DNA of 64,000 nucleotides from a bacterium (GTDB taxonomy: Bacteria > Patescibacteriota > Microgenomatia > UBA1400 > PJMF01), in assembly GCA_017431625.1 (NCBI GenBank), contig JAFRKQ010000010.1, positions 17,503 through 81,502 of the forward strand, given 5' to 3'. Both the position numbers and the translations under genes were made by a program. Under the pieces are notes generated by a model, which was given only the letters and a program-made list of their open reading frames with translations, did no database searches and was not told the origin of the DNA. This document shows positions 2,545 to 58,923 of this stretch, piece after piece; positions within the stretch are counted from its first letter, which is position 1, and each line of letters starts with the position of its first letter.

Positions 2545-2582
2545 ATATTATATCATACTATGTCAAATTTGTCAAGAGGCAA
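2545..2582 (-). promoter_or_regulatory. Consensus sigma70-type promoter (TTGACA-17-TGATATAAT), minus orientation, drives malQ
   Basis: Reverse complement reads gcctcTTGACAaatttgacatagtatgaTATAATa. The element is shared with 11 other copies in the window. Confidence 0.6.
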
Positions 2583-2624
2583 TTTTGCCAGTGAAATTGG
2601 CCAACTTTGGTGTATAATAGCGGC

Positions 2625-3140
2625 ATGAAAAAAATCTTGCGCCTACTGGCAAGTCTGTCTACACTGGTGATCGGCAGTATGGGGCTGGCGACACTCGCCC
2701 AGGCTCAAGTGTGTGCGGTCTGCACAATTGCGGTGGCCAGTGGTCTGGGTATTAGCCGGCTGCTTGGGGTTGATGATACCTACACTGGCGTTTGGTTGGG
2801 GGCAGCGGTGGTTGCTCTGCCCAGTTTTGTCAGTAGTCTGATTGCCAAAAAATGGCCCAAAGTCAAGTATTTACGGAAAATTTCCCTGGTGACAATGATC
2901 GTGGTCACACTGGTAGCCTTATATCTGGCTGATGGTTTTTACCGGGCGGGGGCACTGACTCATCTGGCTCAAGGGATGATCATCGGCGTGATTTGCTTTT
3001 TGCTGGGCTATTACTTGGATCGAGCCTTGAGAGTGCTCAAAGATGATGGGGGCAAGCCATATTTTCCTTTCCAAAAGGTAGTCTGTCCCGTTTGTCTGGT
3101 ACTGGTGGGGACGTTGGGGGCATGGATTTTGGTAAGCTAA
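2625..3140 (+). CDS. Hypothetical membrane protein (signal peptide plus several TM helices)
   Basis: The track ORF starts at a TTG (2607). The likely true start is ATG 2625 (MKKILRLLASL..), 6 nt after TATAAT at 2613-2618, so the mRNA is leaderless. Confidence 0.5.
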   Translation: MKKILRLLASLSTLVIGSMGLATLAQAQVCAVCTIAVASGLGISRLLGVDDTYTGVWLGAAVVALPSFVSSLIAKKWPKVKYLRKISLVTMIVVTLVALYLADGFYRAGALTHLAQGMIIGVICFLLGYYLDRALRVLKDDGGKPYFPFQKVVCPVCLVLVGTLGAWILVS

Positions 3141-3200
3141 AGTGAACATTTGTGTGGTATAATAGTCATTAGTTTGATAACTAAAGTAGCTATAGGATAG

Positions 3201-4616
3201 ATGATTATGACCAATCAGAAGAATAAATTGGATGAATTGGTAAGTTTTTGCAAGTCGCGTGGTTTTGTTTATCCTTCGAGTGAGATTTATGGCGGCATGA
3301 GTGCAATTTATGATTATGGTCATTATGGTATTCTCCTGAAAAATAATATTCGCGATGCCTGGTGGCGAGAGATGGTCCAGTTGCGAGAAGATGTTTTAGG
3401 CCTTGACAGTGCGATTTTTATGGCACCGATGACCTGGAAGGCGTCTGGGCACGTGGATAGTTTTGATGACCCGCAGATTGATTGCAAAAAGTGTCACGCG
3501 CGCATTCGGGCCGATCATTTGTTGGAAGAGTTTGGACTCAATGTCGATAAAGAGCCTATCGATGTGGTTAATAGCAAAATTAACGAGCTCAAGCGAGCAG
3601 GGCAAAAGATTTGCTGTCCCAATTGTGGAAGTGAGGATTTAACACCGGCCAAGCGCTTTTCCTTGATGGTGAAGTCAAATATCGGCGCGCCTACCGATGA
3701 CTTATCTGAAGAGAATGTGGTTTATCTGCGTCCAGAAACTTGTGGGGGGATCTATTTGGAGTACAAAAACACCATGGACTCCCTCCACCCCAGTTTGCCT
3801 TTTGGAATTGCTCAGGTGGGTAAGGCTTTCCGTAATGAAATTATTGCCCGGCAGTTTGTTTTCCGCACGCGTGAGTTTGAACAAATGGAAATGCAGTACT
3901 TTTTGCATCCTGACGATATGAAACAGAAGTATGAATACTGGCGCGCTCAGCGTTGGAATTGGTATTTGAGTCTGGGGATGGACGAGAAAAAAATCCGCTG
4001 GTTCAAGCATCTTAAACTCGCGCACTATGCTAGCGAGGCTTATGACATCGAGTACGACAGTCAGTTTTTGGGCGGCTTTAAGGAAATCGAAGGCATTCAT
4101 GCTCGCGGTAATTGGGATTTGTCGCAGCACAGTAAATTTTCGGGTGTGGATCTGTCATATTTTGATCCCAAAACGGGCGAGAAGTTCATTCCCCATATTA
4201 TGGAAACGTCAGTGGGCTTGGGTCGGCTTTTCTTGATGTTCTTGGATTTTGCCTATACACGGGAAAAAATTGCTGGTAAAGATGATGAGCGTTTGGTTTT
4301 GCATCTTGATCCGCGTCTGGCGCCAGTCAAGGCGGCGGTCTTCCCACTTTTGCGCAACAAACCCGAGCTGGTGACCAAAGCACGCGAGCTGGCTGGGCGC
4401 TTGCGGCCACTTTATCAGATAGAGTTTGATGATCACGGCAATATTGGCAAACGCTATCGTCGCCAAGATGAAATTGGGACTCCACTGACAATCACAGTAG
4501 ATTTTGACAGTTTGAGTGGTGATGACGTGACCGTGCGCGAGCGCGACACCATGAGTCAGGAGCGCGTGAGCATCGCCAAGTTGACGGATTATTTGCGGGA
4601 GAAACTGGGTTTTTGA
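3201..4616 (+). CDS. glyQS: Glycine--tRNA ligase (class II, alpha2 type)
   Basis: 471 aa. Characteristic GlyRS N-terminus (FVYPSSEIYGG, WWREMVQ) and class II motifs. The stop overlaps the next gene's start (ATGA). Confidence 0.85.
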   Translation: MIMTNQKNKLDELVSFCKSRGFVYPSSEIYGGMSAIYDYGHYGILLKNNIRDAWWREMVQLREDVLGLDSAIFMAPMTWKASGHVDSFDDPQIDCKKCHARIRADHLLEEFGLNVDKEPIDVVNSKINELKRAGQKICCPNCGSEDLTPAKRFSLMVKSNIGAPTDDLSEENVVYLRPETCGGIYLEYKNTMDSLHPSLPFGIAQVGKAFRNEIIARQFVFRTREFEQMEMQYFLHPDDMKQKYEYWRAQRWNWYLSLGMDEKKIRWFKHLKLAHYASEAYDIEYDSQFLGGFKEIEGIHARGNWDLSQHSKFSGVDLSYFDPKTGEKFIPHIMETSVGLGRLFLMFLDFAYTREKIAGKDDERLVLHLDPRLAPVKAAVFPLLRNKPELVTKARELAGRLRPLYQIEFDDHGNIGKRYRRQDEIGTPLTITVDFDSLSGDDVTVRERDTMSQERVSIAKLTDYLREKLGF

Positions 4617-7412: not shown

Positions 7413-7949
7413 TTAGTAATTCTCAAGGTAAGTCAATTCGTGAATCGCGGTATTGTGAAAACGTCGCCAACGATGATGTGGGTCAACGAGATGACAGAAT
7501 TCATTCATAACTCCTGCGTGAGTGATCACGACGATACGGCGCAGCTGGCGAGGAAAACTCGACAGTGAATGCAAAAAAGCGATTAATCGCTGCTTCAGTT
7601 TTTGACGAGTTTCTACTCCCAACAAATCGTATTCGGGTCCGCCGCCATCAATCTCTGTCCAGCAAACATCATGTTTGGAGCGCATCTCCAATTCGCCATA
7701 AGAGCGCTCGCGCAAAAGCCAGGTGTACATCACCGGCACGCAAATTACTTTGGCAATTGCTTGCGCTGTCTGGCGTGCGCGAATGAGATCAGAGCTAAAA
7801 ATGGCGTCGATATCAAGCTCACGACAAGTATTGGCAACACATTCCGCTTGCAAGCGTCCATCGTGATTGAGTGGCGCATCGATCCAGCCTTGAATGAGCC
7901 CCTGTTGATTGAGCTGGGTGCGACCATGTCTGATCAGCCAGATTTTCAT
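7413..7949 (-). CDS. Histidine phosphatase family protein (phosphoglycerate mutase-like)
   Basis: MKIWLIRHGRTQLNQQG.. gives the RHG catalytic motif. AGGAGG lies 9 nt upstream of ATG 7949. The track ORF is extended upstream to 7976. A consensus minus promoter lies at 7990-8030. Confidence 0.7.
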   Translation of the reverse strand: MKIWLIRHGRTQLNQQGLIQGWIDAPLNHDGRLQAECVANTCRELDIDAIFSSDLIRARQTAQAIAKVICVPVMYTWLLRERSYGELEMRSKHDVCWTEIDGGGPEYDLLGVETRQKLKQRLIAFLHSLSSFPRQLRRIVVITHAGVMNEFCHLVDPHHRWRRFHNTAIHELTYLENY

Positions 7950-8079
7950 CAATACACACCTCCTTTGAAAGAACAAGTTGGCTTGATTATATCAAATTAT
8001 GACAAACTGTCAAGAGGGTAGTAGACATATATGTCAAATTGTGAGCACAAAAAGTGGGGGAGTAAACTCCCCCAAAATA

Positions 8080-18972: not shown

Positions 18973-18973
18973 A

Positions 18974-44302: not shown

Positions 44303-44400
44303 GCTTCTCCTTGCTTTTTTGTTTGGACCCCTTTTTTTACCATGAAACCTCACAAAAATCAAGAGACAAAAGTAGTTGATTTTGCGGTATAATACACGGT

Positions 44401-46113: not shown

Positions 46114-46132
46114 TCCAGTCAGTATATCCCAT

Positions 46133-46172: not shown

Positions 46173-46209
46173 GCCTGGACATTTGTTGCCAATGTGCTAT
46201 AATCATTTT

Positions 46210-47067
46210 ATGACAGAAACGAATATCGATTTGAGTTCAGTGGCACCCGCGGAAGCGACCACCCCACCTGCGACCCCTGAACAGACCGATAATAATCAGC
46301 CCGAAAATGCACCCGAAAATGAACTGATTGATATCGAAACCGCCACCTTTGCGCCCATCAGCCTTGAGGGCCAGACTCCACAGGTGCAAGTCACGGATGC
46401 CCGTGGCCACCAAGAAACTATCAGTCTGGATGATTTTAAGAAAAAATATGGCGGTCTTGAAAGTGCCCGGGTGTTTTTGGAGCAGTGGCGGACAACACTA
46501 GAGGATAACGATACAAAACCACCAACTCAATTTGACTCCGCCCCTCAAGAGCTTCAAGGTGTATTGATCAATCTTGGTTTACCCATAAACATGGAAGGAG
46601 TACAAATAGTAGATGCAGCCACTAATGCGGCCGTTTTAAATATTAATGGCAGACTAATTAAGGTTGATAAACCATGGGAAATTAAAGTGTTGCGTGAATC
46701 ATTACCCGGTTTTGAAGAGTCATTTTTGCACGCACAACAACAATTCGGCAATGATGGTCGGGCCAAGGATGCACTCACCTTTGTCAATCCAGATGTAGAT
46801 TTATCAAAATTACACGTTACGTACAGCTACGAAGGTGGCGATGCGTATACGATAAGTGATGGCCAAGCGACAATCAGATTATCGCGAAAAGAGTTTGCTC
46901 AATGGCTGGATCGTCAGCCCCAAGATATTCAAGCTCGATACCAATATTTGCGTCCGGAATATAATGGCGATGTCTACGAGTCAGCCCAATACCGCCTGCA
47001 GCTGGAAAATTCACCTGACAGACGTGTGCACATCGTTGAGCACGTTCGCAATTTTTTTGAGGGTTAG
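46210..47067 (+). CDS. Hypothetical protein (285 aa), acidic/Pro-rich N-terminus
   Basis: Leaderless: TATAAT 46198-203 lies 6 nt before ATG 46210. The track start is TTG 46183. Confidence 0.5.
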   Translation: MTETNIDLSSVAPAEATTPPATPEQTDNNQPENAPENELIDIETATFAPISLEGQTPQVQVTDARGHQETISLDDFKKKYGGLESARVFLEQWRTTLEDNDTKPPTQFDSAPQELQGVLINLGLPINMEGVQIVDAATNAAVLNINGRLIKVDKPWEIKVLRESLPGFEESFLHAQQQFGNDGRAKDALTFVNPDVDLSKLHVTYSYEGGDAYTISDGQATIRLSRKEFAQWLDRQPQDIQARYQYLRPEYNGDVYESAQYRLQLENSPDRRVHIVEHVRNFFEG

Positions 47068-47079
47068 ACAGCACCAGCA

Positions 47080-48054
47080 ATGCCACGCGAAGCAATTGAT
47101 CAGTTTCGACAACGAATTATGGATGGCAATCCGCAAGAATTGCTGGCTAGATATCGTGGCGATGAGATTTTTAATCAGCTTGTAGAACAACACCAGATTG
47201 GCACGAATCCTGACGGCAGCCCGCAGATAGTCCTCACCCTCAATGAGGCTGGCGTGAGTACACTTTTAGAGGGACTAGCTCCATCAGCACTGCTAGCCAA
47301 TCACAGCGACAGTCAATTTTTACGCGACATGTTTGGCTCTGTCCCAGAATTAGCGCGTACTTACCAGCAATTTGAGCAATTTGAAGGTAATCTTAGGGAA
47401 ATTGAACAGGATATTGAGAATGAAATAGTTCGTCTTGGTCAAAAATATAATTTTCCTGAAAATGTCAATACTTTGCCGTCTCCTGCACGCGAACAAGAGT
47501 CTTTGCGCATTGCCACTATTTTGTGCCGTGAACTCGCGAATCGCAATCAGTATCAGTATGACCAAATTTATGCTAACAATAATGAGTACATGGCTATTCC
47601 CGCTAAGTACCAGCGTACGTATGAGGAAGGATTGGTGGCCAATCAAAAGCGCGGGATGTGTACCTCGTTTTCATCGTTCTATCAGCATGCTCTCGAACAT
47701 TATGGAGTGAGCTCGGTTTTACTTAATGGGACGCGCTTGAATTTATTTGGGTCTTCCGATGGTGACAGTCCGTCAATTGCTAGCCGACACGCCTTTGTCG
47801 GTGTCAGAGTGAGTGGCGACAGCGAAAATCCCATCTACCATATTTTTGACCCAACACAAGGGCGTTACGGCGAAGGAACCTCAGATTATAGCTATTATGT
47901 TGAGCCCTCGGCATATACATATGCCAGCAGTATGCTGCGAGGCGCATTTACTGGTGGTTATCAACAATACCATCGTCTCAGTGCATGTCAGGCCTTCCTC
48001 AAGACAATCAGCGGTACCAGCATTGATCGTGACATCATCGACCAGATTAAATAG
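47080..48054 (+). CDS. Hypothetical protein, possible transglutaminase-like/papain-fold cysteine peptidase domain
   Basis: The order KRGMCTSFSSFY (Cys), SRHAFVGV (His) and IFDPTQG (Asp) fits a transglutaminase-like core. This is inference only. Confidence 0.45.
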   Translation: MPREAIDQFRQRIMDGNPQELLARYRGDEIFNQLVEQHQIGTNPDGSPQIVLTLNEAGVSTLLEGLAPSALLANHSDSQFLRDMFGSVPELARTYQQFEQFEGNLREIEQDIENEIVRLGQKYNFPENVNTLPSPAREQESLRIATILCRELANRNQYQYDQIYANNNEYMAIPAKYQRTYEEGLVANQKRGMCTSFSSFYQHALEHYGVSSVLLNGTRLNLFGSSDGDSPSIASRHAFVGVRVSGDSENPIYHIFDPTQGRYGEGTSDYSYYVEPSAYTYASSMLRGAFTGGYQQYHRLSACQAFLKTISGTSIDRDIIDQIK

Positions 48055-48109
48055 AACTAAATTCACTGCCGATAATCAGTTATATTGACTAAACTAGTCA
48101 TAATATAAT

Positions 48110-48150
48110 TTATTATATCACATCTACTCATTTTTGTCAAGAGGCAATTT
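48110..48150 (-). promoter_or_regulatory. Consensus promoter, minus orientation, pointing into the 3' end of the 47080-48054 gene
   Basis: Reverse complement gcaaAATTGCCTCTTGACAAAAatgagtagatgTGATATAATaaa. Confidence 0.5.
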
Positions 48151-48201
48151 TGCTTCAAAATTACTACTGCTTTTGGCTCAATCTTTTGGTATAATACCGC
48201 C

Positions 48202-49989
48202 ATGGGCACAGGAACCGACTATCTTGACCATCTCGCCAATGACACTCGGGCAGAGGAGGAGTACATGTACACTAGTAATCGACGTTGGCAACATGACTAT
48301 GATGATTGGGACGATTGGAATCGCTGGGACGGTGACGATGATGACTATCAAAACACCTGTCCAGATGACGCTCCGCCGCCAGTGTTTATGATCGACCCGC
48401 AAGTGTATGAATTTGGTGGCTTCAAGCCGGTTTCGACCAAAAAACCCGCTCAGCCAAGCAAAAAACAGCGCCAAGCTCAGTCTCCAGTCAACCATCAGGC
48501 CAATACCAATTACTCTTTAGATCTTGATCCTCGTCCCGTGACTGTTTCTGGGCCTGATTTCCAATCGCAGCCGGTCGCGCCAACACCAGATAGCTGGCAA
48601 GATGACCCGGACAATCAGCCGCTGATGAGTGCCTGCTCAGATTTGCTCAAAACCGACAAAAACGCCTTTATTTTTGGCTCGGCTGGCACCGGCAAATCCA
48701 CGCTCTTGCGCCACATTTTGCACGAAATGAGTGATATTTTTGCGATTGTTGTCCTCGCGCCCACTGGGGTGGCGGCCATTAATGTAGGTGGCGAAACCAT
48801 TCATCACTTTTTGCATCTCAAGCCCGCAGCCGACGAGCAAGACACCAAAAGAGCCGCTAACAAAGCCAGAATGGAGCGACCCGAGATCTACACGCGCGTG
48901 GACTGGATTATTATTGACGAGATTTCCATGGTGCGAGCAGATCTTTTTGACAGTCTCAATCTTTTTTTGCAAATCGTGCGCGGCAATCGCCAGCCTTTTG
49001 GTGGTGTCCGGCTGATTTGTTTTGGTGATCTTTTCCAACTGGCGCCCATTGTCCGTCAACAGGAGGCAGCGGCCTTCAGTGAATACTACCAGACACCTTA
49101 TTTTTATGGTAGCCATGCTTTTGATCAGCTCATGATCCAGCAACAAGACGATGTCATCTTTATCGAGTTGAGCAAAATTTATCGCCAGAGTGACCCAGAT
49201 TTTATTAATTTGCTACAAAAAATTCGCCGTCGCGAGCTTTCGGCTGGTGACCTCGAGCAGCTCAATCGCCAAGTCATCAGTCACGACCAGCTCAAAAACT
49301 TGAGTCATCAGTGCGTCACCCTGACGGCCACCAAAGCCGCCGCCAAGGTCATCAATGACCGGCATATGAACAAACTCCAAGGCCAAATCAACCGCTATCA
49401 AGGTACAATTGAGGGCAATTTTAATTACAACTCCATGCCCACTGACAAGGTCCTTGTCTTGCGCCCCGGTGCTCGGGTGATGTTGCTTAATAATGATCCG
49501 GAAGGACGTTGGGTTAATGGCACGATGGGCACAGTGGTCAGCCTCCAGGCTCAGGAAGTTAGCGTGCGCCTGGACGATGGACCGCAGGTGAGTGTCCGTG
49601 AGGTCAGCTGGGAGGAATCAACTTCCAGATATGACCGGCTCAATCACCGCATTGTCCGAGAAGTAGTCGGCAAATTTACCCAGATCCCGCTTAAACTTGC
49701 CTGGGCGATCACCATTCACAAGTCTCAGGGCCAGACTTATGATGAGGTGGCTATTGACCTGGGCGAGCGGGCCTTTGCCGAAGGACAGACCTATGTGGCG
49801 CTCTCGCGAGCCCGCACCCTCAAGGGTATACATCTGGTGCGACCAGTGACTCTCGACGATATTTATTGCTGTCAGGATGTAGTCAATTTTGAGCGCAAAT
49901 TCTCGACCACGCCCGATGGTCGACGACGCTTCAAAGGCTTAACCGGCACCAAGGTCTCCAAATCAGGTGTCCAAGAAACTATCCTCTAA
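48202..49989 (+). CDS. Pif1/RecD-like superfamily 1 DNA helicase with acidic W/D-rich N-terminal extension
   Basis: GSAGTGKST (motif I), IIIDEISMV (II), GDLFQLAP (III), YRQSD. N-terminal about 150 aa DDWDDWNRWDGDDDDY low-complexity region. Leaderless: TATAAT 48190-95 lies 6 nt before the ATG. Confidence 0.75.
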   Translation: MGTGTDYLDHLANDTRAEEEYMYTSNRRWQHDYDDWDDWNRWDGDDDDYQNTCPDDAPPPVFMIDPQVYEFGGFKPVSTKKPAQPSKKQRQAQSPVNHQANTNYSLDLDPRPVTVSGPDFQSQPVAPTPDSWQDDPDNQPLMSACSDLLKTDKNAFIFGSAGTGKSTLLRHILHEMSDIFAIVVLAPTGVAAINVGGETIHHFLHLKPAADEQDTKRAANKARMERPEIYTRVDWIIIDEISMVRADLFDSLNLFLQIVRGNRQPFGGVRLICFGDLFQLAPIVRQQEAAAFSEYYQTPYFYGSHAFDQLMIQQQDDVIFIELSKIYRQSDPDFINLLQKIRRRELSAGDLEQLNRQVISHDQLKNLSHQCVTLTATKAAAKVINDRHMNKLQGQINRYQGTIEGNFNYNSMPTDKVLVLRPGARVMLLNNDPEGRWVNGTMGTVVSLQAQEVSVRLDDGPQVSVREVSWEESTSRYDRLNHRIVREVVGKFTQIPLKLAWAITIHKSQGQTYDEVAIDLGERAFAEGQTYVALSRARTLKGIHLVRPVTLDDIYCCQDVVNFERKFSTTPDGRRRFKGLTGTKVSKSGVQETIL

Positions 49990-49992
49990 TAA

Positions 49993-50031
49993 TTTGCTAC
50001 TTGACAAAAGTGACATTGTATGATATAATAC
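49993..50031 (+). promoter_or_regulatory. Consensus promoter (TTGACA 50001-06, TATAAT 50024-29)
   Basis: aaTTTGCTACTTGACAAAAgtgacattgtatgaTATAATacg. The transcribed segment 50033-50135 has no ORF. Confidence 0.55.
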
Positions 50032-50107
50032 GGGTGAATGGCAAGAGTGCCGGTGAGAGTTTGTAGGGTCTAATGATCGTGAGGCTAGTTTTTTGCTGGC
50101 CAAAAAG

Positions 50108-50132
50108 ATAGGCCCCTGCTAATTAAAGCAGG
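50108..50132. terminator. Hairpin GCCCCTGC-taattaaa-GCAGGGGC; on the minus strand it is followed by CTATCTTTTT, so it terminates the phosphomannomutase gene
   Basis: Strong GC stem 30 nt downstream of the minus-strand gene's stop. It is also the likely 3' end of the plus-strand small-RNA candidate. Confidence 0.5.
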
Positions 50133-50160
50133 GGCATACCAAGCTTGAAAGCTAAATGAA

Positions 50161-51591
50161 TTAGTCAAAAGCGTGGGTATTGACGCCTTGACTCCAGTCA
50201 ATCTCCTCGTGAGACGAAAGGATTTTTTTGAGGAGTTTTTTGAGGGCCTCGTACTCTTTTTTGGTTTTGGCCTCAAACTTGATGGTAATATAAGGACCAT
50301 TTTGGGAGGCGCGGATCGTCACCATTTGCGTGGGTGTATCCAGACGAATACCATCAATGGTGTTGTAATCGGCCTTGGGGAATTCCTTCTTGAGGTCCTT
50401 GGTAATCACGTTTTTGATGAACTTAAACTTGATCTCATCAGCCAGACCCAATTTGATCTCGGGACTGGTGGTAAACTTAGGCAGACTGTCTACCGCCTCA
50501 CCCAGAGTCAAGCCCTTGCGCTCAAGATATTGGAGCAGGCGCAGTGAGGCATAGGCGGCATCATCATGACCAAAGAAATTGTCATTAAAGAAAATGTGAC
50601 CCGAAAGCTCACCACCAAAGGGAGCGTTGAGTTCCTTGATTTTGGCCTTGATAAATGAGTGGCCTGTAATCCACATCACTGGCTGACCACCGCGTTTTTC
50701 GATCGTTTGGCTGACGGCCTTGGAGCAGAGATTGTTGAAGACAATTGGCGCCCCGGTCATGGTGTCAAGGACATCATCAGCAAAAAGAGCGACAACACTA
50801 TCCATCCATAAAACTCGCCCAGCTTCATCGACCACGGCCATACGGTCACCATCAGCGTCATAAGCCAGACCCAAATCAGCCTCATGTTTGAGGACACCCT
50901 CACGCAGGCGATTGAGGACCTCGACCTCGGTGGGATCAGGTACGCCCAGAGGGAAATTGCCATCGGGCTTGCAATTTTGCTCAATGACACTGCAACCAGC
51001 CTCATGCAAAATCTCGGGATAGAACATGCCACTAGTGGTGTTACTGGCATCAATGACCACTTTCCATTTTTTGCGCAGGCTGAAGTTTTTGAGAATTGTG
51101 CGCAAATATGAATCAAAAATATTGACTTTATGATTGGCCGCGGGCGTGGTGGCCGTCACGAAATCTGCCTTGTTGCACAGCTCGCGAAAGGCAATCACCT
51201 CCTCGGATAGCATGGTCTCGGAATAGCCAGTACCGAGTTTGAGACCATTGTATTGGCGCGGATTGTGAGAGGCGGTGATCATGGCGTAGCCTTTGGTCTT
51301 GTATTCATAAGCGGCATAATAAACCATCTGTGAGAGGGCATAACCCATGTCATAGGTCTCAATGCCACCATCGTTGAGGCCCTGGATAAAGGCTTTTTTG
51401 TAATCTTTGGAGGTGATGCGATTGTCGTGACCGACCGCGCAATCAACGATCCGGTGGATCGAAAGCCAAGTGGCATAAGCCCGACCAAAAGTGTAGTAAA
51501 CATCGGGGTTGAGATCCACGTCCATCACTCCACGGATATCATAACCCCGAAAAATATTGGGATTGATATTGGTGACAATTTTGTAAGCCAT
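50161..51591 (-). CDS. manB: Phosphomannomutase/phosphoglucomutase
   Basis: TASHNPRQYNGLKL (active-site Ser loop). GGELSGHIFF. 476 aa. Minus promoter variant at about 51611-51650. Confidence 0.85.
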   Translation of the reverse strand: MAYKIVTNINPNIFRGYDIRGVMDVDLNPDVYYTFGRAYATWLSIHRIVDCAVGHDNRITSKDYKKAFIQGLNDGGIETYDMGYALSQMVYYAAYEYKTKGYAMITASHNPRQYNGLKLGTGYSETMLSEEVIAFRELCNKADFVTATTPAANHKVNIFDSYLRTILKNFSLRKKWKVVIDASNTTSGMFYPEILHEAGCSVIEQNCKPDGNFPLGVPDPTEVEVLNRLREGVLKHEADLGLAYDADGDRMAVVDEAGRVLWMDSVVALFADDVLDTMTGAPIVFNNLCSKAVSQTIEKRGGQPVMWITGHSFIKAKIKELNAPFGGELSGHIFFNDNFFGHDDAAYASLRLLQYLERKGLTLGEAVDSLPKFTTSPEIKLGLADEIKFKFIKNVITKDLKKEFPKADYNTIDGIRLDTPTQMVTIRASQNGPYITIKFEAKTKKEYEALKKLLKKILSSHEEIDWSQGVNTHAFD

Positions 51592-51659
51592 AAAGCCTTT
51601 CTGTTACCGATTCGAGACATTATATCACGGATTTTGCTATTTTGACGAGCAATTTGGCA

Positions 51660-52751
51660 CTAAGTCAGTTGGGCTAGCTCAGCATCAATAAAAGGACGGA
51701 TCTTACCGTCTAAAACTCCAGCAGTATCACTGGTCTCTACACCGGTGCGCACATCTTTGACCAATTGATAAGGGTGGAGAACATAATTGCGGATTTGGGT
51801 GCCCCAACTAGCCTGAGTGTTATCGCCCTTGAGAGCCGAGAGTTCTTGGGTCTGTTGCTGCTCCTGCATGAGCGCTAGCCTGGAGCGCAAAATTTGTAGG
51901 GCGCGTTCTTTGTTTTGGGCCTGGAAGCGCTCCTCACGACAGCGCACCACAATCCCCAGTGGTAAGTAGGTCAGCTCCACCGCGGTATTGACTTTGTTGA
52001 CATTTTGCCCGCCGGCCCCGCCACTTCTGGTAAAATGCCACGATAAATCAGCTTCATTAAGAACAATGTCTTTGCTGTCGCTCTCAATAGCGGGCATCAC
52101 CTCGACCAAGCAAAAAGAAGTTTGTCTGAGATTGTCAGCATTAAAAGGTGACAATCGCACCAAGCGGTGAGTCCCGGCTTCGTGCTTGAGCAAACCATAG
52201 ACATGGCGGCCAGAGACCTCATAGGTAACGGCTTTAATCCCGGCCTCCTCGCCACGCGACTCGTCCAAAAGCTGATATTTCCAGCCCTCGCGCTCAAAAA
52301 AACGGGTGTAAGCGCGTGCCAGCATACTCGCCCAGTCCATCGCCTCGGTGCCACCCTGGCCCGCGTGAATGCTAAAAATCGCATCGTGACGGTCATATTT
52401 ACCTGTGAGGTATTGCTCCAGCTCCAGCGACTTGACCAAAGAGCGCAAACGCGCAAAAATTTCCTCCAGAGCTTTGATATAGTCGGGATTGTCAGGTTCT
52501 TCTGTCTGTAAAAATTGCGCTGTCTCCAGCTCGTCTAGCAAATCTACCAACCTCTGGCCAGTCTGCTCGCGCTCTCGCCACTCACCCAAGGCTTTCATGA
52601 TCTGTTTGGCATCTGGACGCGTCCAAAAATCGGGCAGGAGCGTTTGTTGCTCCAGCTGCTGGATCTTTTGGCCAGTCTCCTGACGGTCCAGGCGCACCAA
52701 AAGCGCTCGGGCCTTGTCCTGATAAAGCGAGATTTCCCTGGGCTCTAACAT
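51660..52751 (-). CDS. prfB: Peptide chain release factor 2
   Basis: GGQ motif (GGAGGQNVNKV) and SPF motif (RLSPFNAD). Encoded in a single frame with no programmed frameshift site. Confidence 0.85.
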   Translation of the reverse strand: MLEPREISLYQDKARALLVRLDRQETGQKIQQLEQQTLLPDFWTRPDAKQIMKALGEWREREQTGQRLVDLLDELETAQFLQTEEPDNPDYIKALEEIFARLRSLVKSLELEQYLTGKYDRHDAIFSIHAGQGGTEAMDWASMLARAYTRFFEREGWKYQLLDESRGEEAGIKAVTYEVSGRHVYGLLKHEAGTHRLVRLSPFNADNLRQTSFCLVEVMPAIESDSKDIVLNEADLSWHFTRSGGAGGQNVNKVNTAVELTYLPLGIVVRCREERFQAQNKERALQILRSRLALMQEQQQTQELSALKGDNTQASWGTQIRNYVLHPYQLVKDVRTGVETSDTAGVLDGKIRPFIDAELAQLT

Positions 52752-53460: not shown

Positions 53461-53620
53461 TTTAACACTGCGGCGCTTCGTGCATATCTCCGCAGTGGAG
53501 TGCGGAGCTCCGCGCGGAGCTGTGCAATACAGTGCGTCGCTTGGTGCTAAGCGGCGAAGTAGAGTGCGGAGCTGTGCGCGCAGCAGTGCAGTAAAGTGCA
53601 CAGCGGTGCAAGGCAGATAA
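53461..53620. repeat. GC-rich palindrome-dense repeat block L (contains the perfect palindrome GCGGAGCTCCGC at 53502-53513 and internal direct repeats AGTGCGGAGCT..GTGC)
   Basis: About 65% GC in an AT-rich intergenic region. Inverted repeats CACTGCGG/CCGCAGTG. Related to block R at 59086-59185 (both carry TGCATATCT...TGCGGAGCTCCGC). No coding potential. Confidence 0.5.
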
Positions 53621-53944: not shown

Positions 53945-56900
53945 ATGTCCAGGTGGTGGTTTTGGCATATCATTGTTTGCAAGAAGGCGTGTTGGCTAAT
54001 AGTAAATATCTTACTGTTAGGTTTGTTTTATACACACCGAATTCAAGCAACATCAATGCCCAACAATTGTCCTCCGGTAGTACAATATGGCAATCCGAGG
54101 CTTAAAAGCGGTAATGGAAGATTTATTAATAATAGTTATGCTTATAGAACTATTTGGCCACCAACAGGTTTTGAAAATTGCCAACGATATCGTTTGCCTG
54201 AAGAATTTTTTTGTCCCACTTCTCAAGGATGGTCGACAACCAAACCGACAAATTGTCCTGGTGGAAATATCATGATGATGCGTGTTGGTGGCGTTGGTAC
54301 ACCATATTTACTTTCTTCATCAACCTCAAATTCTACAATTGATGACGCACACGTAATTGTTGAAAATTTTAGACGTACTGAAAATGCAAACGAATTCGAA
54401 TCTTATTATGGAAATAACGTCTTTATTAATTTATCTAATGCATACGTGGAAGGCATTATTCCTTATAGTTGTTACAAATGCGGAATTTGTATATCTGGCG
54501 GCGGCACCAGCAGTTATAGAGATGGTAACAATAGAAAAGAATATGGTGCTAGCCCAGAAGCAGTTTCTAATGGCATAGGTCGTATCAACCTCGAACGATA
54601 CCTTCAACAATTAAAAGAGGAAGGAATATATGAATGTTTAGGCACCGATGTTATCCCAAATAGCAGTGGTGGAATCGCATATTTAGGCGGTCCAGGTAGT
54701 TCGATCGGCTGCCAAAATTCAGATGAATACACGTTATATTTACCGCAGTTTTATCGCAATTATAGGGTCAAACTCAATGGTATCTATTCAAAATACAGTT
54801 ACAGTACTGAAAGGGTAACTGAGGGTTACATTTTCCCTGGAGACAATAGTGCTTGGGAGCAGTCATTTGGCAATTATATTGCAGCTGGTTATTGCGTTCA
54901 CAAATGTTATTTGGCTGGCTATTTCAAGCCAAATACTCAATGTGCAGGTGCGCAATCAGTAAAAATCTGGTATGGCGGCAGCGGAATAATGAATAGACCG
55001 TCTGACAATCCCACTGATAATCTCCAGCAAATTACCTGTACCTACTGTCCGCCCTGTACCGAAGCAACCACTTGTACTCAAGCCTCAAACGAAACGACAG
55101 TTTATCATGAACCTACTTATCGCTGTAGTGAGGGGACATATGCTCAAGAGGCGCAACTCAAACAATGCAATGGCGATACACTCCAATGCAGAACTTGCGA
55201 GTGCGAAACATGTGAGCACCAAAATCTCACCGAAAAAACCTGCAGTGGTGACCGGCTGACACTCGACAAAACCATCAAAAGTTGTGACCAAAATCTGACT
55301 TGCCCCAAAAGTGTCTGTACTCGCAACTGCGAAGAACAAGGACAAGCAGATAGTCGCACTTACTACAGTCTCGCCACTAAGACTTGTGCCAACAACACCG
55401 CTGGCAACACCGAACCCAATATCATCACCGTCTATGACAGCCTCAACAAAGTATATTTGCGTGACGATAACGGCAATTCAATGTGCTTTGCTGGTTGTTC
55501 TGATCCGTGTCAAAGTACCGCACGCGGCGGACAGTCTTCGTGGAGTTTTTTTGCTGGACGCTACGCCAATGATAATTGTGGTCTGAGCTACACACCAACT
55601 CTGCGCGCAATCACCAATTACTATGGCGCCGAAGTCACCTGCCAAACCGATAGTTGCCAAGACCAATGCACGGCGCGGGGATTTACGCCCACAGACCGTA
55701 TTTCTTGTCCGGCAAATCAAGTGCCTAATTTAGTCAATCTATCTGTACCAATCAATGGTAAAACCATTATTTGCGCCAATGGTTGTCGTGACAATAATCC
55801 TGATGCTGGTTGGTGTACGAGTGTGGGCACCCCCACTTATGGCAACCAATGGCAGATCAAAACTAGAAAGACAGTACTCGTGAGCGACTATTATCAATAC
55901 CAAGCTGGTTACCCTTATCCTCATGGTAAAACTGGCCCTAGTACCACTATCAATAGTCATACTTATCAAGTGCTTTACGCGCCGCGCGGAGAAAAGAAAA
56001 ACGGCATCGCATATACCAATGGCGATTGTTTTTATGGCGGTTGCCGCGCTCAAGGGCGCACTTGTACGGCCCAGACTTGTGATACCAGCAACAATGTCAT
56101 TCGCTACGGCACTGGCGGCACCACATCCTGTCAACCAACAACGGCTTACAAAACTGACTGGTGTCAAAATGGTTGTGCTGCTATTCCCACTTTCACCACT
56201 CGCAGTGTCACCCAAACCCTTGATGACGCCAGCGTCACTTGTACCATGATCAATGGCTGTGGCCCACAGTATTTAGCCAGCACAGCTCCAAGTTGTACTT
56301 CACATTTGTGCGCCGGCTGGACTTGTAAAGAATATAACAAAAAAGATGGTACCACTTGCGAAGAAAGATATACCGACGACGAACATTGTGAAACTCGCAA
56401 TGAAGAAACCAAAGTGTGTACCTCATACCAATGTAAAAAATGGCAACAGGTGGACGACACTAGTAGCTGCAAAACATGGTACGATGCTAACAACGGTGGT
56501 GGCACCTATTATGAAAACAATACTCTCTGCACCACGGCTGGTCGATGTCAGTCAGCCACTTGTGTTGTGACCGCGTGCACCACACCGTGTCCAATGGTGA
56601 GTCAAACTATCGATAATGATCAAGGTTTTGGCACTTACAAGTTTTTGCGTCCCACCAAATATCCCAGCGGCACCACTTATTCGGTAAGCGGTGCAGGTAG
56701 TGATATGTGTGGCACCACTGACTACACCAGCACTCGCGCTTGTCGAGAGCCAAGCTGTACCCACGGCGAAGTTAATGCCAATACCGGCAAACGTCTGACT
56801 TACACTCTTAATACCGATATCGCTTATGACAGTGGCACGTCGACAGCGGCCAATTATTCTGATTATGTCAAATGCTCTCACCAATCAGGTCGTATCGGCA

Positions 56901-58054
56901 CCGACAATATGTGGACTGGTGGCACCTGGATGTGCGACTACAACTCCGAAAAAGTCGTCTATAGTCCCAGTGACCTATATGGTAGTAACACTTGCAACAA
57001 GGGAGACTACAATATCCGTTGCTTTCATCGCTACACCTGCAAAGAACTCTTGGGCGATAAACACAGTGATGAATATCACACCACTCTTCCCGCCGGCACT
57101 CAAGTTTTCATTCCTGAAATTGTCAATAAAGTCGCTGGGTGGGACTATCAAGGTGGGCGCTGCGGTAAATACGTGACCAGTAATTTGCCACAATGGCTAC
57201 AAGCCGGCGGCAATCAAGTAACTACAAGCGGTTCACGCTATGGCACAGGGGCCATGTATGATAGCTGTCCCGACGTTATCACTGCTCGGGCCGCTAGTAA
57301 TTTCTCGACAACAATCAGCAACATCCGCCGTGGCAACGATATGGTACCACTAAGCTACAATTACTTCGCCGAAAGACTCAATATCGATAGTTTGCCGTCA
57401 TGCACTAGCGCTACTATTGATAGTGAAGGCTTTTATGTTTGTCAAACAACAGGCCGAAAGCTTTCCGAACTGAGTACCTTTTTGCCGGCCAATATCAATG
57501 CTGTTATTTTTGTTACCAGTGGCGACCTGATCATTGACACCAATTTTCAAACAGCTCAAGGGTATTTTAAAGCTTTGATTGTTCGCGACAAAATCAAAGT
57601 GGACAAGCACGTCGGCACCAGAGCCCAAGATGCTGTCACTGGCAATATTACGAGTGGTTTGAGTATCAAGTGCCCACAACAAATTGACGCTCACTTGCAA
57701 GGGATTTTTATTGCCAGCAGTTTTGAGTTTGAAAGAAATCCTGTAGTCGATAGCGACATGGTAGCTTTTAATGGTAAGGAGCTTTATTGCGACCGTCAAT
57801 TGATAATTGCCGGCAGTTTGATTTCATACGGGAGCGATCTCAGGCTCGATCGTACTTTCCGCGGCTGCATTCAAGTTGCAGGCACTCGCGACGAAAATAA
57901 TGGCGGTTGGGACGATCTCAAAAACGACCCCAGCCTTTATCCCAATTACAATATCTACGCCATGCCATTTGTCTTTTTTGAACGCGCTGATTTCAATCGG
58001 ACCGCACCTTTGTGGATGAAAAACACCAACCTGGAACGGGTAGAAAACAATTAA
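53945..58054 (+). CDS. Giant cysteine-rich secreted/surface protein (1369 aa), N-terminal signal anchor
   Basis: AAAGGAAA RBS. N-terminal hydrophobic anchor WWFWHIIVCKKACWLIVNILLLGLF. Extremely Cys/Thr/Gly/Tyr/Asn-rich with many CxxC, C-T-x-C and EGF-like spacings. No enzymatic motifs recognised. Confidence 0.7.
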   Translation: MSRWWFWHIIVCKKACWLIVNILLLGLFYTHRIQATSMPNNCPPVVQYGNPRLKSGNGRFINNSYAYRTIWPPTGFENCQRYRLPEEFFCPTSQGWSTTKPTNCPGGNIMMMRVGGVGTPYLLSSSTSNSTIDDAHVIVENFRRTENANEFESYYGNNVFINLSNAYVEGIIPYSCYKCGICISGGGTSSYRDGNNRKEYGASPEAVSNGIGRINLERYLQQLKEEGIYECLGTDVIPNSSGGIAYLGGPGSSIGCQNSDEYTLYLPQFYRNYRVKLNGIYSKYSYSTERVTEGYIFPGDNSAWEQSFGNYIAAGYCVHKCYLAGYFKPNTQCAGAQSVKIWYGGSGIMNRPSDNPTDNLQQITCTYCPPCTEATTCTQASNETTVYHEPTYRCSEGTYAQEAQLKQCNGDTLQCRTCECETCEHQNLTEKTCSGDRLTLDKTIKSCDQNLTCPKSVCTRNCEEQGQADSRTYYSLATKTCANNTAGNTEPNIITVYDSLNKVYLRDDNGNSMCFAGCSDPCQSTARGGQSSWSFFAGRYANDNCGLSYTPTLRAITNYYGAEVTCQTDSCQDQCTARGFTPTDRISCPANQVPNLVNLSVPINGKTIICANGCRDNNPDAGWCTSVGTPTYGNQWQIKTRKTVLVSDYYQYQAGYPYPHGKTGPSTTINSHTYQVLYAPRGEKKNGIAYTNGDCFYGGCRAQGRTCTAQTCDTSNNVIRYGTGGTTSCQPTTAYKTDWCQNGCAAIPTFTTRSVTQTLDDASVTCTMINGCGPQYLASTAPSCTSHLCAGWTCKEYNKKDGTTCEERYTDDEHCETRNEETKVCTSYQCKKWQQVDDTSSCKTWYDANNGGGTYYENNTLCTTAGRCQSATCVVTACTTPCPMVSQTIDNDQGFGTYKFLRPTKYPSGTTYSVSGAGSDMCGTTDYTSTRACREPSCTHGEVNANTGKRLTYTLNTDIAYDSGTSTAANYSDYVKCSHQSGRIGTDNMWTGGTWMCDYNSEKVVYSPSDLYGSNTCNKGDYNIRCFHRYTCKELLGDKHSDEYHTTLPAGTQVFIPEIVNKVAGWDYQGGRCGKYVTSNLPQWLQAGGNQVTTSGSRYGTGAMYDSCPDVITARAASNFSTTISNIRRGNDMVPLSYNYFAERLNIDSLPSCTSATIDSEGFYVCQTTGRKLSELSTFLPANINAVIFVTSGDLIIDTNFQTAQGYFKALIVRDKIKVDKHVGTRAQDAVTGNITSGLSIKCPQQIDAHLQGIFIASSFEFERNPVVDSDMVAFNGKELYCDRQLIIAGSLISYGSDLRLDRTFRGCIQVAGTRDENNGGWDDLKNDPSLYPNYNIYAMPFVFFERADFNRTAPLWMKNTNLERVENN

Positions 58055-58111: not shown

Positions 58112-58140
58112 GATTTTTTGTTGGTAACAATCAAAAAACT
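58112..58140. terminator. Bidirectional rho-independent terminator AAAAAATCTCTCacaaGAGAGATTTTTTG
   Basis: Perfect 8-bp stem flanked by an A-run and a T-run, 60 nt after the giant gene's stop. Confidence 0.55.
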
Positions 58141-58205
58141 TAAGTTTGTGCTTACTCTTATTTTGACTCATAAAAACATCATCAATATGTTATAATACCA
58201 CTTCT

Positions 58206-58790
58206 ATGAATCAAGTAGAAAAAGACACTATAGAACTTTTGCAATTGCTTGATAAGCGTTCAATCATTGGCCGCCAAATATCAATCGATGTGCTCGCACA
58301 ATTAAATAAAATGTCCACTCAACAGCTATATGTCTACGCACAACAGCAAGTTCAACATTACCTCAATTTTATGTTTGTCGGTTACGATCATCAGGCCAAA
58401 ATATATTTTCATCCCGGTAACACTGAATCAGTTGCTAAATACACTCAACATCTAATTGCAGGCAAAAATAGTGATATTAACCAAATTAAAACCGCTAGAG
58501 TATTGGGTTTAATTCTCACTCCACAAACAATTGCGCAACCATTGCAAGTGATTATTCAGGAAAACAATCGCCTTGCTTATAATTGTCTCTACCAACTGAG
58601 ATTTAAACAACTATCGCATACTGTCATTATTGGGACTGAAAATGGACAGGTGGGTCGAGTAATCACCTCAATTGTTACCATTGATCAAAAGAGAGATAAA
58701 CACGCCTCATTGCGTGACGTCAAAAAACTGTGTACACGGGCAAAAGAAATTTTAGTGGTAAATCTTGATCAACAAAAACGCGCCGCCTAG
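58206..58790 (+). CDS. Hypothetical cytoplasmic protein (194 aa)
   Basis: Own promoter TTGACTcataaaaacatcatcaatatgTTATAAT, 9 nt before the ATG. No recognised domain. Confidence 0.5.
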   Translation: MNQVEKDTIELLQLLDKRSIIGRQISIDVLAQLNKMSTQQLYVYAQQQVQHYLNFMFVGYDHQAKIYFHPGNTESVAKYTQHLIAGKNSDINQIKTARVLGLILTPQTIAQPLQVIIQENNRLAYNCLYQLRFKQLSHTVIIGTENGQVGRVITSIVTIDQKRDKHASLRDVKKLCTRAKEILVVNLDQQKRAA

Positions 58791-58892
58791 CAGCGCGTCT
58801 TAATTCTAGGCCGGACTGTCCAGGTATCTGCGTCCCGCAACCGACCAGCAAAGGTCAACGATTGATACCAATCTGACTATGCTCGGTAATCA

Positions 58893-58923
58893 CATTATAC
58901 CATAAAATTGCGATTTGTCAACT
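58893..58923 (-). promoter_or_regulatory. Strong minus-orientation promoter (TTGACA-17-TGGTATAAT) pointing into the 3' end of the 58206-58790 gene
   Basis: Reverse complement TTGACAaatcgcaattttaTGGTATAATg. The transcribed antisense segment contains CCTGGACAGTCCGG and TTAAG. Confidence 0.5.

Follow-up and report, generated by a model that had tools for sequence, protein, structure and literature searches.

A family of near-consensus sigma-70/sigma-A type promoters in a Patescibacteria genome, most of them facing the 3′ ends of convergent genes or tRNAs

A 64-kb window of an uncultivated Patescibacteria genome (the whole stretch of 64,000 nucleotides analysed here) contains eleven closely similar elements which, by every sequence criterion, are near-perfect housekeeping promoters of the sigma-70/sigma-A type. 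According to the gene map of the window, three of the eleven are genic, i.e. they drive a gene, and eight are stranded, with a convergent gene or tRNA ahead of them. We consider it about an even chance (roughly 50%) that the stranded copies are displaced but intact promoters, which were separated from their genes by rearrangement and would now fire antisense. Stranded sites make up 8/11 of the family vs about 2/22 of the ordinary promoters of the window (p = 4e-4). The excess of intact, strong promoters that are stranded and aimed at gene ends is statistically real. An earlier note on this DNA had stated that only some copies lie upstream of a co-oriented gene and that others face convergent gene ends; both statements hold, and an ordinary strong promoter at 58894-58921, which is not part of the family, likewise faces a convergent 3′ end.

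The family was defined by a position matrix scan of the window, using a matrix derived from the scored copies themselves. Its consensus is AATTGCCnCTTGACAAA(A/T)-N11-TGATATAATA. Eleven sites scored 55-72 bits and the runner-up, a genic site at 8393+, scored 30 bits; between 30 and 55 bits the scan of the window gave no site, i.e. no partly decayed copy. Copies are named here after the coordinate of the C of CTTGACA and the strand. Those on the plus strand are 17507+, 22361+, 40917+, 43607+ and 50000+, and those on the minus strand 2576-, 26026-, 31364-, 35685-, 46162- and 48141-. Exact matches to TTGACAAAA-N11-TGATATAAT occur nine times in the window (0.01 expected from shuffles), and AATTGCCnCTTGACAAAA is found 13 times when up to three mismatches are allowed (0.5 expected). 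The earlier count of at least 12 copies is thus reduced to 11 by the matrix. The claimed twelfth copy (7986-8016, minus strand) is only a partial match, having CTCTTGACA and TGATATAAT without AATTGCC and the A-run, and was rejected as the ordinary leaderless promoter of a histidine-phosphatase gene (7413-7976). The gap, previously given as N13, measures 11 nt between CTTGACAAAA and TGATATAAT, which places the two hexamers at the canonical distance of 17 nt. Assembly artefacts do not account for the junctions at 43607+, 46162- and 50000+; these recur in independent assemblies from other samples. At the right end of the window, a large ORF from 60489 onward extends past the border and affects no family copy. 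Protein look-ups aimed beyond the window led to short contigs only, all of them from the same strain.

The elements are composed of an UP-like upstream module, AAATTGCC, an extended −35 module, CnCTTGACAAAA, a 17-bp spacer that ends in a ‘−16’ TRTG motif, and the −10 sequence TATAATA. An A/T-rich block is located at about −46 to −42, an A directly follows the −10 hexamer, and the start is predicted 6-8 nt past the −10. Hexamers and hexamer spacing are identical in all 11 copies, and T(G/A)TGATATAAT, with the extended −10 (TGn) and the −16 motif, is present in 11/11. The seven copies in the scanned region 34000-52000 match TTGACA-17-TATAAT at 12/12 positions and carry the TG extension. Two copies, 43607+ and 50000+, represent a ATTTGCTA variant with the common two-base change TAATTTGCTACTTGACAAAA. 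With modules of this kind, RNA polymerase would be expected to bind and initiate at every copy. The ordinary genes of the window are preceded by −10-dominated, often leaderless promoters (TATAAT-N6/7-ATG). Together with the family, all other TGnTAYAAT sites account for essentially every intergenic −10 motif of the window, and these non-family sites are located 0-260 nt upstream of genes or tRNAs.

The 25-base family pattern also recurs in environmental contigs (at least 99), whose lineages are varied and span several phyla; it is therefore not a private repeat. In these contigs AAATTGCC, CnCTTGACAAAA, TRTG and TATAATA recur together, TRTG being present in 72/83 environmental copies. The conservation well beyond the hexamers that had been remarked on earlier is not special to the present genome. 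Among 74 unique environmental cases with enough downstream sequence, a co-oriented tRNA within 300 nt was seen in 23/74, a co-oriented ORF in 35/74 and an antisense tRNA in 0/74. Likewise, 13/16 copies in three related MAGs have a co-oriented ORF within 250 nt. The genes behind family copies in the relatives gave no indication of a regulon, since most are without a Pfam domain and no common theme emerged. Outside the three Patescibacteria MAGs, a scan of the genome collection yielded single hits close to the number expected by chance (17 bases, estimate about 70), which were for this reason not counted as evidence of homology. A full-text literature search found no study of Patescibacteria (CPR) promoters or start sites.

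The three genic copies are closely packed against their neighbours. Copy 2576- (2546-2584, minus strand) drives the 4-alpha-glucanotransferase gene 1127-2527; the 2607+ gene has its leaderless promoter back-to-back with this copy. Copy 17507+ (17499-17537, plus strand) serves murA (17626-18972); the gene upstream of it, 16759-17511, extends into the element with its 3′ end. The element of 22361+ (22353-22391, plus strand) begins 30 nt past the murG stop codon and is directed towards a DUF4012 gene (22480-24489), for which a second, leaderless promoter is present at about 22470.

The stranded copies adjoin either the end of a co-oriented gene or, in a back-to-back arrangement at a distance of 35-53 bp, the leaderless promoter of a neighbour, and the gene that they face is 13-138 nt away. 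On the minus strand, 26026- (25996-26034) is located behind the terminator of PNPase and has the 3′ end of tRNA-Phe (25836-25909, +) ahead of it; for the next gene in its own orientation (25341-25751), a separate leaderless promoter is present. The element of 31364- (31334-31372) begins 16 nt past the stop of a holA-like gene (31388-32089, −) and points to the 3′ terminus of a gene for a 121-aa TM/coiled-coil protein (30825-31190, +), whose translation suggests a DivIC/FtsB-like protein and which gave no Pfam hit. Three further copies on this strand are arranged back-to-back with leaderless promoters: 35685- (35655-35693) with that of a glycosyltransferase operon (35746+), facing a DUF3048 gene (34330-35532, +) and its terminator; 46162- (46132-46170) with the one at 46176-46203(+), facing MurJ (44401-46113, +) with a predicted start 13 nt from the MurJ stop; and 48141- (48111-48149) with that of a PIF1-like helicase gene (48202+), facing the 3′ end of a 324-aa gene, 47080-48054(+). 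On the plus strand, 40917+ (40909-40947) overlaps the stop of an MscS-like gene and faces tRNA-Arg and tRNA-Leu (41026-41213, −), beyond which CoaE has its own leaderless promoter. Copy 43607+ (43599-43637) is back-to-back with the promoter 43548-43577(−) of a 72-aa membrane ORF and a GNAT gene, and faces the 3′ end of an RNase_H_2-fold gene (43718-44302, −). Finally, the element of 50000+ (49992-50030) begins 3 nt past the helicase stop codon and faces a gene of the phosphoglucomutase/phosphomannomutase (PGM/PMM) family (50161-51591, −), here called GlmM-like, whose strong terminator hairpin (50112-50135) lies ahead of the promoter. The facing MurJ, GlmM-like, DUF3048 and RNase_H_2-fold genes are supported by Pfam, as is PNPase, and the facing tRNAs are real, five tRNAs of the window passing Rfam. 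In about half of these eight convergent arrangements a stem-loop lies between the promoter and the opposing gene. Additionally, a TGACTGGAC box, absent from the relatives, occurs in five exact copies in the window, 4/5 of which follow a family promoter at a distance of up to about 70 nt (46113-46121-, 17571-17579-, 22426-22434+ and 40977-40985+).

The arrangement of the stranded copies may well have arisen in the following way. The genome is compact, and its promoters are packed against their neighbours, on a co-oriented stop codon or back-to-back at the 35-53 bp given above. Whenever gene blocks are rearranged or inserted, which has occurred here repeatedly in comparison with the nearest relatives, such a promoter would move along with its neighbour and be parted from its cargo. 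On this account, 8/11 copies have become cargo-less and would fire into the 3′ ends of convergent genes or tRNAs, which would probably lead to head-on traffic and to RNA that is antisense or short and non-coding.

Comparison with related genomes supports the idea of displacement. At 35685-, 43607+ and 46162-, at least, the local gene order differs from that of the nearest relatives. In the latter, MurJ is 77-79% identical, gene order is different and the compared loci contain no family copy, which includes the MurJ loci of three relatives. Copy 43607+ and its partner 43578- are located inside an insert of about 400 bp, the flanking genes being adjacent in the relatives, and none of the matches to the helicase between 48141- and 50000+ is a close ortholog (best, 53%). 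At 35685-, the promoter of the neighbouring glycosyltransferase operon is about 93% identical to that of the relative L116, and in both L116 and L120 the position of 35685- is occupied by a promoter driving tRNA-Cys, a tRNA that is missing in the window. From this comparison of sequences, 35685- is orthologous to the tRNA-Cys promoter of these relatives. A putative tRNA-Cys remnant, AGTGGTCCAA, follows 35685- as a 10-nt exact match and was discarded, not being significant once 17 tRNAs had been tried; the orthology thus rests on position and promoter similarity. A change of downstream gene is seen for a genic copy. In the relative JAZQJV01, a family copy (L031 4973+) is kept at the end of the homolog of 16759-17511, the downstream gene differs, and murA, which stands behind a further inverted copy, is at a distance of about 16 kb.

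Several observations speak against displacement. Stranded and genic copies match the matrix equally well (55-72 bits) and none is decayed, and among the non-genic copies motif positions are 97% identical, the central spacer 34%. Neutral leftovers of mixed age should decay; hence the displacements would all have to be recent, unless the copies are selected. The excess of stranded sites is specific to the family, and orthology to a genic promoter was found for one stranded copy only.

Selection would be expected if the stranded copies were cis-acting opposing promoters that act as insulators or aid termination against read-through, a reading that we consider rather unlikely, if worth weighing. 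Polymerase collisions, a tightly bound polymerase or antisense RNA would then halt incoming transcription and protect what is behind the copy, be it the next gene's leaderless promoter or a co-oriented gene's 3′ end. The intactness of the copies and the lack of decayed intermediates would fit such a role. All backward-facing copies in tandem gaps (4/4) immediately precede a leaderless promoter (TATAAT-N6/7-ATG), which read-through would occlude while giving transcripts that could not be translated. Family copies also oppose 2/2 tRNA operons that meet a convergent gene and 0/2 of those followed by co-oriented genes. The predicted RNAs have no common sequence, so that any function would reside in the act of transcription; what the regions upstream and downstream of the copies have in common is limited to a short leader segment with CTGACTGGAC and to a likeness between the neighbouring leaderless promoters. 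There is precedent in E. coli, where head-on polymerase collisions terminate convergent genes (Wang, Watters, Ju and Liu, bioRxiv 10.1101/2022.10.23.513370). However, these samples are small (four tandem gaps, four tRNA operons). In a test of whether the copies substitute for terminators, the hairpin strength of the 3′ ends facing them did not differ from that of other operon ends, and the DUF3048 and GlmM-like genes already have strong terminators. Wherever a stranded copy was open to comparison with the relatives, it proved not to be conserved in them. That perfect-consensus, cargo-less promoters are kept by selection as boundary elements in the present Patescibacteria lineage is put forward with a little more reserve still.

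As the stranded copies have no co-oriented ORF, no small ORF led by a Shine-Dalgarno (SD) site and no known RNA downstream, antisense or non-coding RNA, as the earlier note proposed, would be their only output if they are active. It is improbable that this output consists of products that escaped recognition, such as small RNAs, very small proteins or cis-antisense regulators of the facing MurJ, GlmM-like, 121-aa TM/coiled-coil and DUF3048 genes. Several of the facing genes are cell-envelope genes, and two apparent orphans in the relatives do precede possible products, one a 58-aa ORF with a Shine-Dalgarno site and the other an RNA of about 75 nt with a strong terminator. Similarly, the ordinary promoter at 58894-58921 (TTGACA-17-TGGTATAAT, minus strand) has a predicted transcript of about 115 nt (58772-58921, minus strand), which ends in a clean hairpin-plus-U terminator, has no Rfam match and is a candidate stand-alone small RNA; 50000+ could yield an RNA of about 60-100 nt. 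For the stranded copies themselves, Rfam searches at the gathering score and at E<=1 returned nothing downstream of any of them, and no convincing SD-led small ORF was found. The sole ORF call of the genic/stranded classifier among them, a TTG-started 93-aa ORF after 43607+, was judged spurious, as it lies antisense inside the RNase_H_2-fold gene, and a 41-aa SD-led ORF near 31169 has its own promoter. No terminator on the promoter strand follows 43607+, 46162- or 48141-. Only the predicted transcripts of 58922- and 50000+ fold better than shuffles, the latter because it includes the terminator hairpin of the GlmM-like gene, and 6/8 regions fold no better. Moreover, no homolog of the downstream regions was present in the loci retrieved for comparison, and only 13-138 nt are available before the facing gene.

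The earlier suggestion of a repeated mobile promoter cassette fared worse. Identity among the copies is 97% at motif positions, 36% in the central spacer and 26-39% in the flanks (26% in the far flanks). Beyond about −50 and +8 the copies are no longer homologous. The identity is position-specific, confined to functional promoter positions and near random in spacer and flanks, which argues against a recently copied cassette. In the definition of Matus-Garcia, Nijveen and van Passel (2012, PMC3488235), putative mobile promoters are at least 80% identical over 50-100 nt. Over the 52 nt compared here, pairs of copies average 70% identity, only 3/55 pairs reach 80%, and only 3/11 copies are located upstream of a gene, so that similar promoters before non-homologous genes are not the rule. 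Neither defined ends nor unit-wide identity, as in MITE- or Correia-like elements, was found, and inspection by eye revealed no terminal inverted repeats or target duplications. Many unrelated lineages use the motif with different spacers, and one stranded copy is orthologous to a promoter still in place in relatives. Nevertheless, the most similar trio (35685-, 40917+ and 46162-; 81-87% over 52 nt) is entirely stranded and has CCAGGCRTAATTGCC in common, a leader segment of 16-27 nt with CTGACTGGAC is common to 40917+, 46162- and 22361+, the TAATTTGCTACTTGACAAAA variant is identical in 43607+ and 50000+, and several copies lie at synteny breaks. On balance, a mobile or recently propagated cassette, MITE-like or otherwise, that inserts at gene boundaries appears distinctly improbable. 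Least probable is that the element merely resembles a promoter and primarily binds a nucleoid, partition, recombination or other non-polymerase protein, as the partly conserved spacer word TGAYA one helical turn past the −35 and the three TGAYA words about 10 bp apart could suggest, since every conserved block is a known promoter module at canonical spacing, and three copies of the window and most of those in relatives and environmental contigs are correctly placed upstream of genes or tRNAs.

Transcription signals of Patescibacteria (CPR) are almost unknown, and the window provides a clean working promoter model for one lineage, with a strong form composed of AAATTGCC, CnCTTGACAAAA, TRTG and TATAATA and a common weak form that is −10-only and leaderless (TATAAT-N6/7-ATG). 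The strong form is common to many uncultivated lineages and should be useful for annotation and expression tools. The stranded excess may have been left by rapid rearrangement of a compact genome, or it may hint at a use of convergent promoters as boundaries. If the latter were true, a promoter would act as a terminator or insulator, shielding the leaderless promoter or gene behind it.

Consensus sigma-70/sigma-A promoters of E. coli and B. subtilis combine a proximal UP-element subsite, an extended −10 and, in Gram-positives, the ‘−16 region’ TRTG. The family resembles them in TTGACA, the 17-bp spacer, TATAAT, TG at −15/−14 and TRTG at −18 to −15, as well as in the expected distance of genic copies upstream of genes or tRNAs; it differs in having a fixed word, AAATTGCC, as its upstream block in place of a loose A-tract, and in that the best matches of the window mostly have no gene downstream. 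With putative mobile promoters (PMC3488235) it has in common that similar promoters precede unrelated genes in one genome and that some copies mark rearranged junctions. Here, however, the likeness is limited to functional positions, 80% identity is the exception and most copies are not upstream of any gene. Correia elements of Neisseria are promoter-bearing miniature repeats and, like the family, short repeats able to launch transcription into neighbouring DNA in either orientation, whereas the family unit of about 55 bp contains promoter modules only, and no defined ends or uniform identity were seen. ‘Excludon’-type systems are characterized by antisense overlapping transcription. As in these and in convergent termination (bioRxiv 10.1101/2022.10.23.513370), a promoter is directed head-on at the 3′ terminus of a second unit, and several of these pairs have an intervening stem-loop; there both units are genes, whereas here, as far as can be read from sequence, one of the two is a promoter without a gene.

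The element recurs in the window far above chance, as had been claimed from the sequence. The exact pattern TTGACAAAA-N11-TGATATAAT was found nine times against 0.01 expected, and AATTGCCnCTTGACAAAA, with up to three mismatches allowed, 13 times against 0.5 expected. A position matrix, derived from the same aligned family copies that it scores, returned 11 sites at 55–72 bits; the next site scored 30 bits and none lay between. Named by the coordinate of the C of CTTGACA and the strand, these are 2576-, 17507+, 22361+, 26026-, 31364-, 35685-, 40917+, 43607+, 46162-, 48141- and 50000+. Of the at least 12 copies listed in the earlier note, 11 were therefore borne out; the twelfth (7986-8016, minus strand) has only CTCTTGACA and TGATATAAT in common with them. 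The two blocks are separated by 11 nt and not by the 13 nt stated there, which gives the canonical 17-nt spacer between the hexamers.

Only three copies precede a gene and are termed genic: 2576- (4-alpha-glucanotransferase), 17507+ (murA) and 22361+ (a DUF4012 gene). The other eight, termed stranded, have no cargo and are aimed at the 3′ end of a convergent gene or tRNA, so that the proposed antisense geometry holds. Four of them come immediately after a gene of their own orientation, with a convergent gene ahead: tRNA-Phe for 26026-, which is preceded by the PNPase terminator; a 121-aa gene for 31364-, 16 nt beyond a holA-like gene; tRNA-Arg and tRNA-Leu for 40917+, which overlaps the stop codon of an MscS-like gene; and a GlmM-like gene for 50000+, 3 nt beyond a helicase stop. 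The translated 121-aa gene contains a transmembrane segment and a coiled coil, has no Pfam match and, in our own reading, may be DivIC/FtsB-like. The remaining four (35685-, 43607+, 46162-, 48141-) are located between two co-oriented genes and aimed back at the first, each standing back-to-back, at 35–53 bp, with the leaderless promoter that serves the second gene, that is, a −10 box 6–7 nt before ATG. CoaE and a cyclophilin-like gene, which lie beyond the antisense tRNAs, each have their own leaderless promoter and hence do not need 40917+ and 26026-. The ratio of genic to non-genic copies was 3/8 in the family compared with about 20/2 for ordinary window promoters (Fisher p = 4e-4), and the genic share also differed from that of copies in environmental contigs (p = 0.001). 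The excess of cargo-less copies pointed at gene ends is real and lineage-specific.

We give a probability of about one half to the reading that the stranded copies are displaced yet active promoters. Gene order around them is unlike that of the nearest relatives. In MAG JAZQJV01 (locus L116) and in a Logan contig (L120), a divergent tRNA-Cys precedes the glycosyltransferase operon, whose leaderless promoter is nearly identical to that of the window (AATTTGCACTTTTTTGTAGTATAATAG against AATTTGCCATTTTTTGTAGTATAATAG). The tRNA-Cys promoter of both loci occupies the exact back-to-back position of 35685- and is similar in sequence (GGAAATTGCGTGTCAAAAATGAGATTTTTGTGGTATAAT); the tRNA-Cys itself is absent from this position in the window. 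A 10-nt D-arm match downstream of 35685-, considered as a tRNA-Cys remnant, was not significant after correction. At the 3′ end of gene 16759-17511 the family copy is retained in JAZQJV01 (locus L031, 4973+) and stands before an unrelated 171-aa ORF; murA is found there about 16 kb off, inverted, behind another family copy. Judging from these arrangements, the promoter evidently moves together with the gene upstream of it. An insert of about 400 bp, between RNase_H_2-fold and GNAT genes that are adjacent in L116 and L120, contains the pair 43578-/43607+. Besides these two back-to-back promoters, the lineage-specific insert (43307-43717) carries a predicted 72-aa membrane ORF (43323-43541, minus strand). 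For the helicase bracketed by 48141- and 50000+ no ortholog above 53% was found, and the MurJ loci of three relatives showed no family copies. Promoters here are embedded in the ends or promoters of their neighbours, and a rearrangement keeping the neighbour intact would tend to move the promoter along with loss of the cargo. Because of this embedding a promoter could be carried off without its gene, and a single mechanism would account for both stranded geometries.

The host is a Patescibacteria (CPR) bacterium. An NCBI '[bacterium]' protein encoded on a contig of 123.6 kb matches its MurJ with 100% identity; identity is 77–79% to proteins of the MAGs JAZQJV01 ('Patescibacteria group bacterium') and CAYQLH01 and of one Logan contig, and 45–48% to proteins of Microgenomates, Pacebacteria and Woesebacteria. 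The junctions at 43607+, 46162- and 50000+ recur in independent assemblies of other samples with 99.7–99.9% identity and are thus real, not assembly artefacts; no SNPs were found within the family elements in these assemblies.

All stranded copies are intact and half-decayed copies were not found in the window; in a related MAG, one copy (L036 5893+) is decayed. The displacements are either all recent, or the copies are maintained by selection. In the latter case transcription itself, or the presence of bound polymerase, would have to be the function, since the products have nothing in common. Selection for an opposing or insulating role at gene boundaries is possible and is ranked second. Compatible with such a role, all four backward copies would shield leaderless promoters, both tRNA operons meeting a convergent gene face an opposing family copy, and convergent units in E. 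coli are terminated by head-on polymerase collisions (bioRxiv 10.1101/2022.10.23.513370). Against it, the terminators at the facing 3′ ends are of unremarkable strength and the counts are low, and for these reasons we place displaced promoters first.

Any RNA made from the stranded promoters would be antisense to the 3′ ends of three tRNAs and of MurJ, DUF3048, the GlmM-like gene, the RNase_H_2-fold gene, the 121-aa gene and a 324-aa gene; the predicted starts are 13–138 nt from the facing gene. That they drive unrecognised RNA or peptide products of their own is doubtful. Downstream of the stranded copies we found no Rfam families, even at E ≤ 1, no convincing small ORFs led by a Shine-Dalgarno sequence and no homologs in any fetched locus. 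The only ORF calls, a TTG-started 93-aa frame after 43607+, antisense within the RNase_H_2-fold gene, and a 41-aa frame near 31169, which has its own promoter, were not convincing. No same-strand terminator was found after 43607+, 46162- and 48141-, and the putative transcripts showed no folding signal unless the hairpin of the facing gene was included and no common sequence beyond a short box. Elsewhere in the window, a strong promoter is followed by a candidate stand-alone small RNA (58772-58887, minus strand; about 115 nt, folding z-score −2.5, no Rfam match) that ends in a clean hairpin-plus-U terminator and is convergent with gene 58206-58790. Another candidate small RNA, of about 75 nt, is located in JAZQJV01 (L022 3345-3440, plus strand) between a family-type promoter, itself back-to-back with another promoter, and a strong terminator (CCCCCTTGTCATTGGCAAGGGGG plus U-tract).

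A mobile promoter cassette, also suggested in the earlier note, is improbable. Putative mobile promoters have been defined by at least 80% identity over 50–100 nt (PMC3488235); only 3 of the 55 family pairs reach 80% over 52 nt. At motif positions the 11 copies are pairwise 97% identical; the figure is 36% for the central spacer, 38–39% in the adjoining 6–7 bases on each side and 26% further out, and alignment homology stops at about −50 and +8. Identity confined to the motif positions argues for constraint on functional sites rather than recent cassette duplication. The exception is the trio 35685-, 40917+ and 46162- (81–87% identical); 40917+, 46162- and the genic 22361+ also have a common short leader segment containing CTGACTGGAC. 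These similarities make some duplication inside the family likely. The word TGACTGGAC occurs exactly five times in the window (17571-17579(-), 22426-22434(+), 40977-40985(+), 46113-46121(-), 60078-60086(+); estimated chance expectation about 0.5), and in four of these cases a family promoter lies about 70 nt or less upstream. None of the related loci contains the word, which could be a species-specific operator or leader motif. A GC-rich palindromic word, GCGGAGCTCCGC, is repeated in a degenerate 32-nt tandem array and recurs about 5.5 kb away (53492-53599, 59122-59165), each time 150–350 nt upstream of a large Pfam-less gene (53945-58054, 1369 aa; 59323-60477), and might serve as a common operator or recombination site. 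A large cysteine-rich ORF (60489-64000, plus strand) continues past the right end of the window; in the assembly of another sample (L223) it is broken into two genes, of 895 aa and 623 aa, which implies a frameshift difference between strains.

That the element is a binding site other than a promoter is highly improbable, since by sequence all the conserved blocks correspond to known promoter modules with canonical spacing, as the earlier note had assumed. The hexamers TTGACA and TATAAT are the same in all 11 copies, and the seven in the scanned region score 12/12 for −35, 17-bp spacer and −10. They are accompanied by a TG extension with a TRTG '−16' motif, which is typical of Gram-positive-type promoters, by an A following the −10 box and by an A/T-rich block at the position of the proximal UP subsite. 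The window contains 35 TGnTAYAAT sites, nearly all intergenic; the approximately 22 outside the family lie almost all 0–260 nt upstream of a co-oriented gene or tRNA, and many are leaderless (TATAAT-N6/7-ATG). Ordinary promoters of the window, for example those of the GlmM-like gene, tRNA-Glu and EF-P and the one at 53687+, carry AATTGC(C) at the matching register, so the family represents perfect matches to the general promoter consensus of the organism and no separate signal. Many window genes seem to be leaderless, with TGnTATAAT or TATAAT 6–7 nt before ATG; they lack a Shine-Dalgarno sequence and have a weak −35 or none (for example 46176-46212+, 48170-48204+, 35715-35748+, 42446-42480-, 43306-43340-, 58170-58208+, 41240-41280+). 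The usual gene promoter of the organism seems to be of this type. The very beginning of the MscS-like ORF (39777-40910) contains a perfect TTGACA-17-TATAAT without TG extension (39786-39814, plus strand); the start codon may be further downstream, or this may be an internal promoter.

The extended conservation is shared by other genomes. Scanning metagenome contigs with 25 fixed bases (AATTGCCNCTTGACAAAA-N11-TGNTATAAT) yielded at least 99 loci of 28–58% G+C (chance expectation about 0), with the consensus aAAATTGCCyCTTGACAAAA-N4-AAAAgTGTGgTATAATAtA at unfixed positions and TRTG in 72 of 83 copies. Among 74 unique cases with enough downstream sequence, a co-oriented tRNA followed within 300 nt in 23 and an antisense tRNA in none; a co-oriented ORF followed in 35, by a noisy classifier that also scores 36% of random positions as positive, and 16 had neither. 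The full pattern is present in named genomes of Patescibacteria, Chloroflexota, Clostridia and others, with more than one copy per genome seen only in three related Patescibacteria MAGs. In these, a co-oriented ORF follows 13 of the 16 copies within 250 nt; two seeming exceptions precede a 58-aa ORF with a Shine-Dalgarno sequence and an RNA of about 75 nt with a strong terminator. By sequence, the element itself is an ordinary but unusually clean promoter form, common to many uncultivated lineages.
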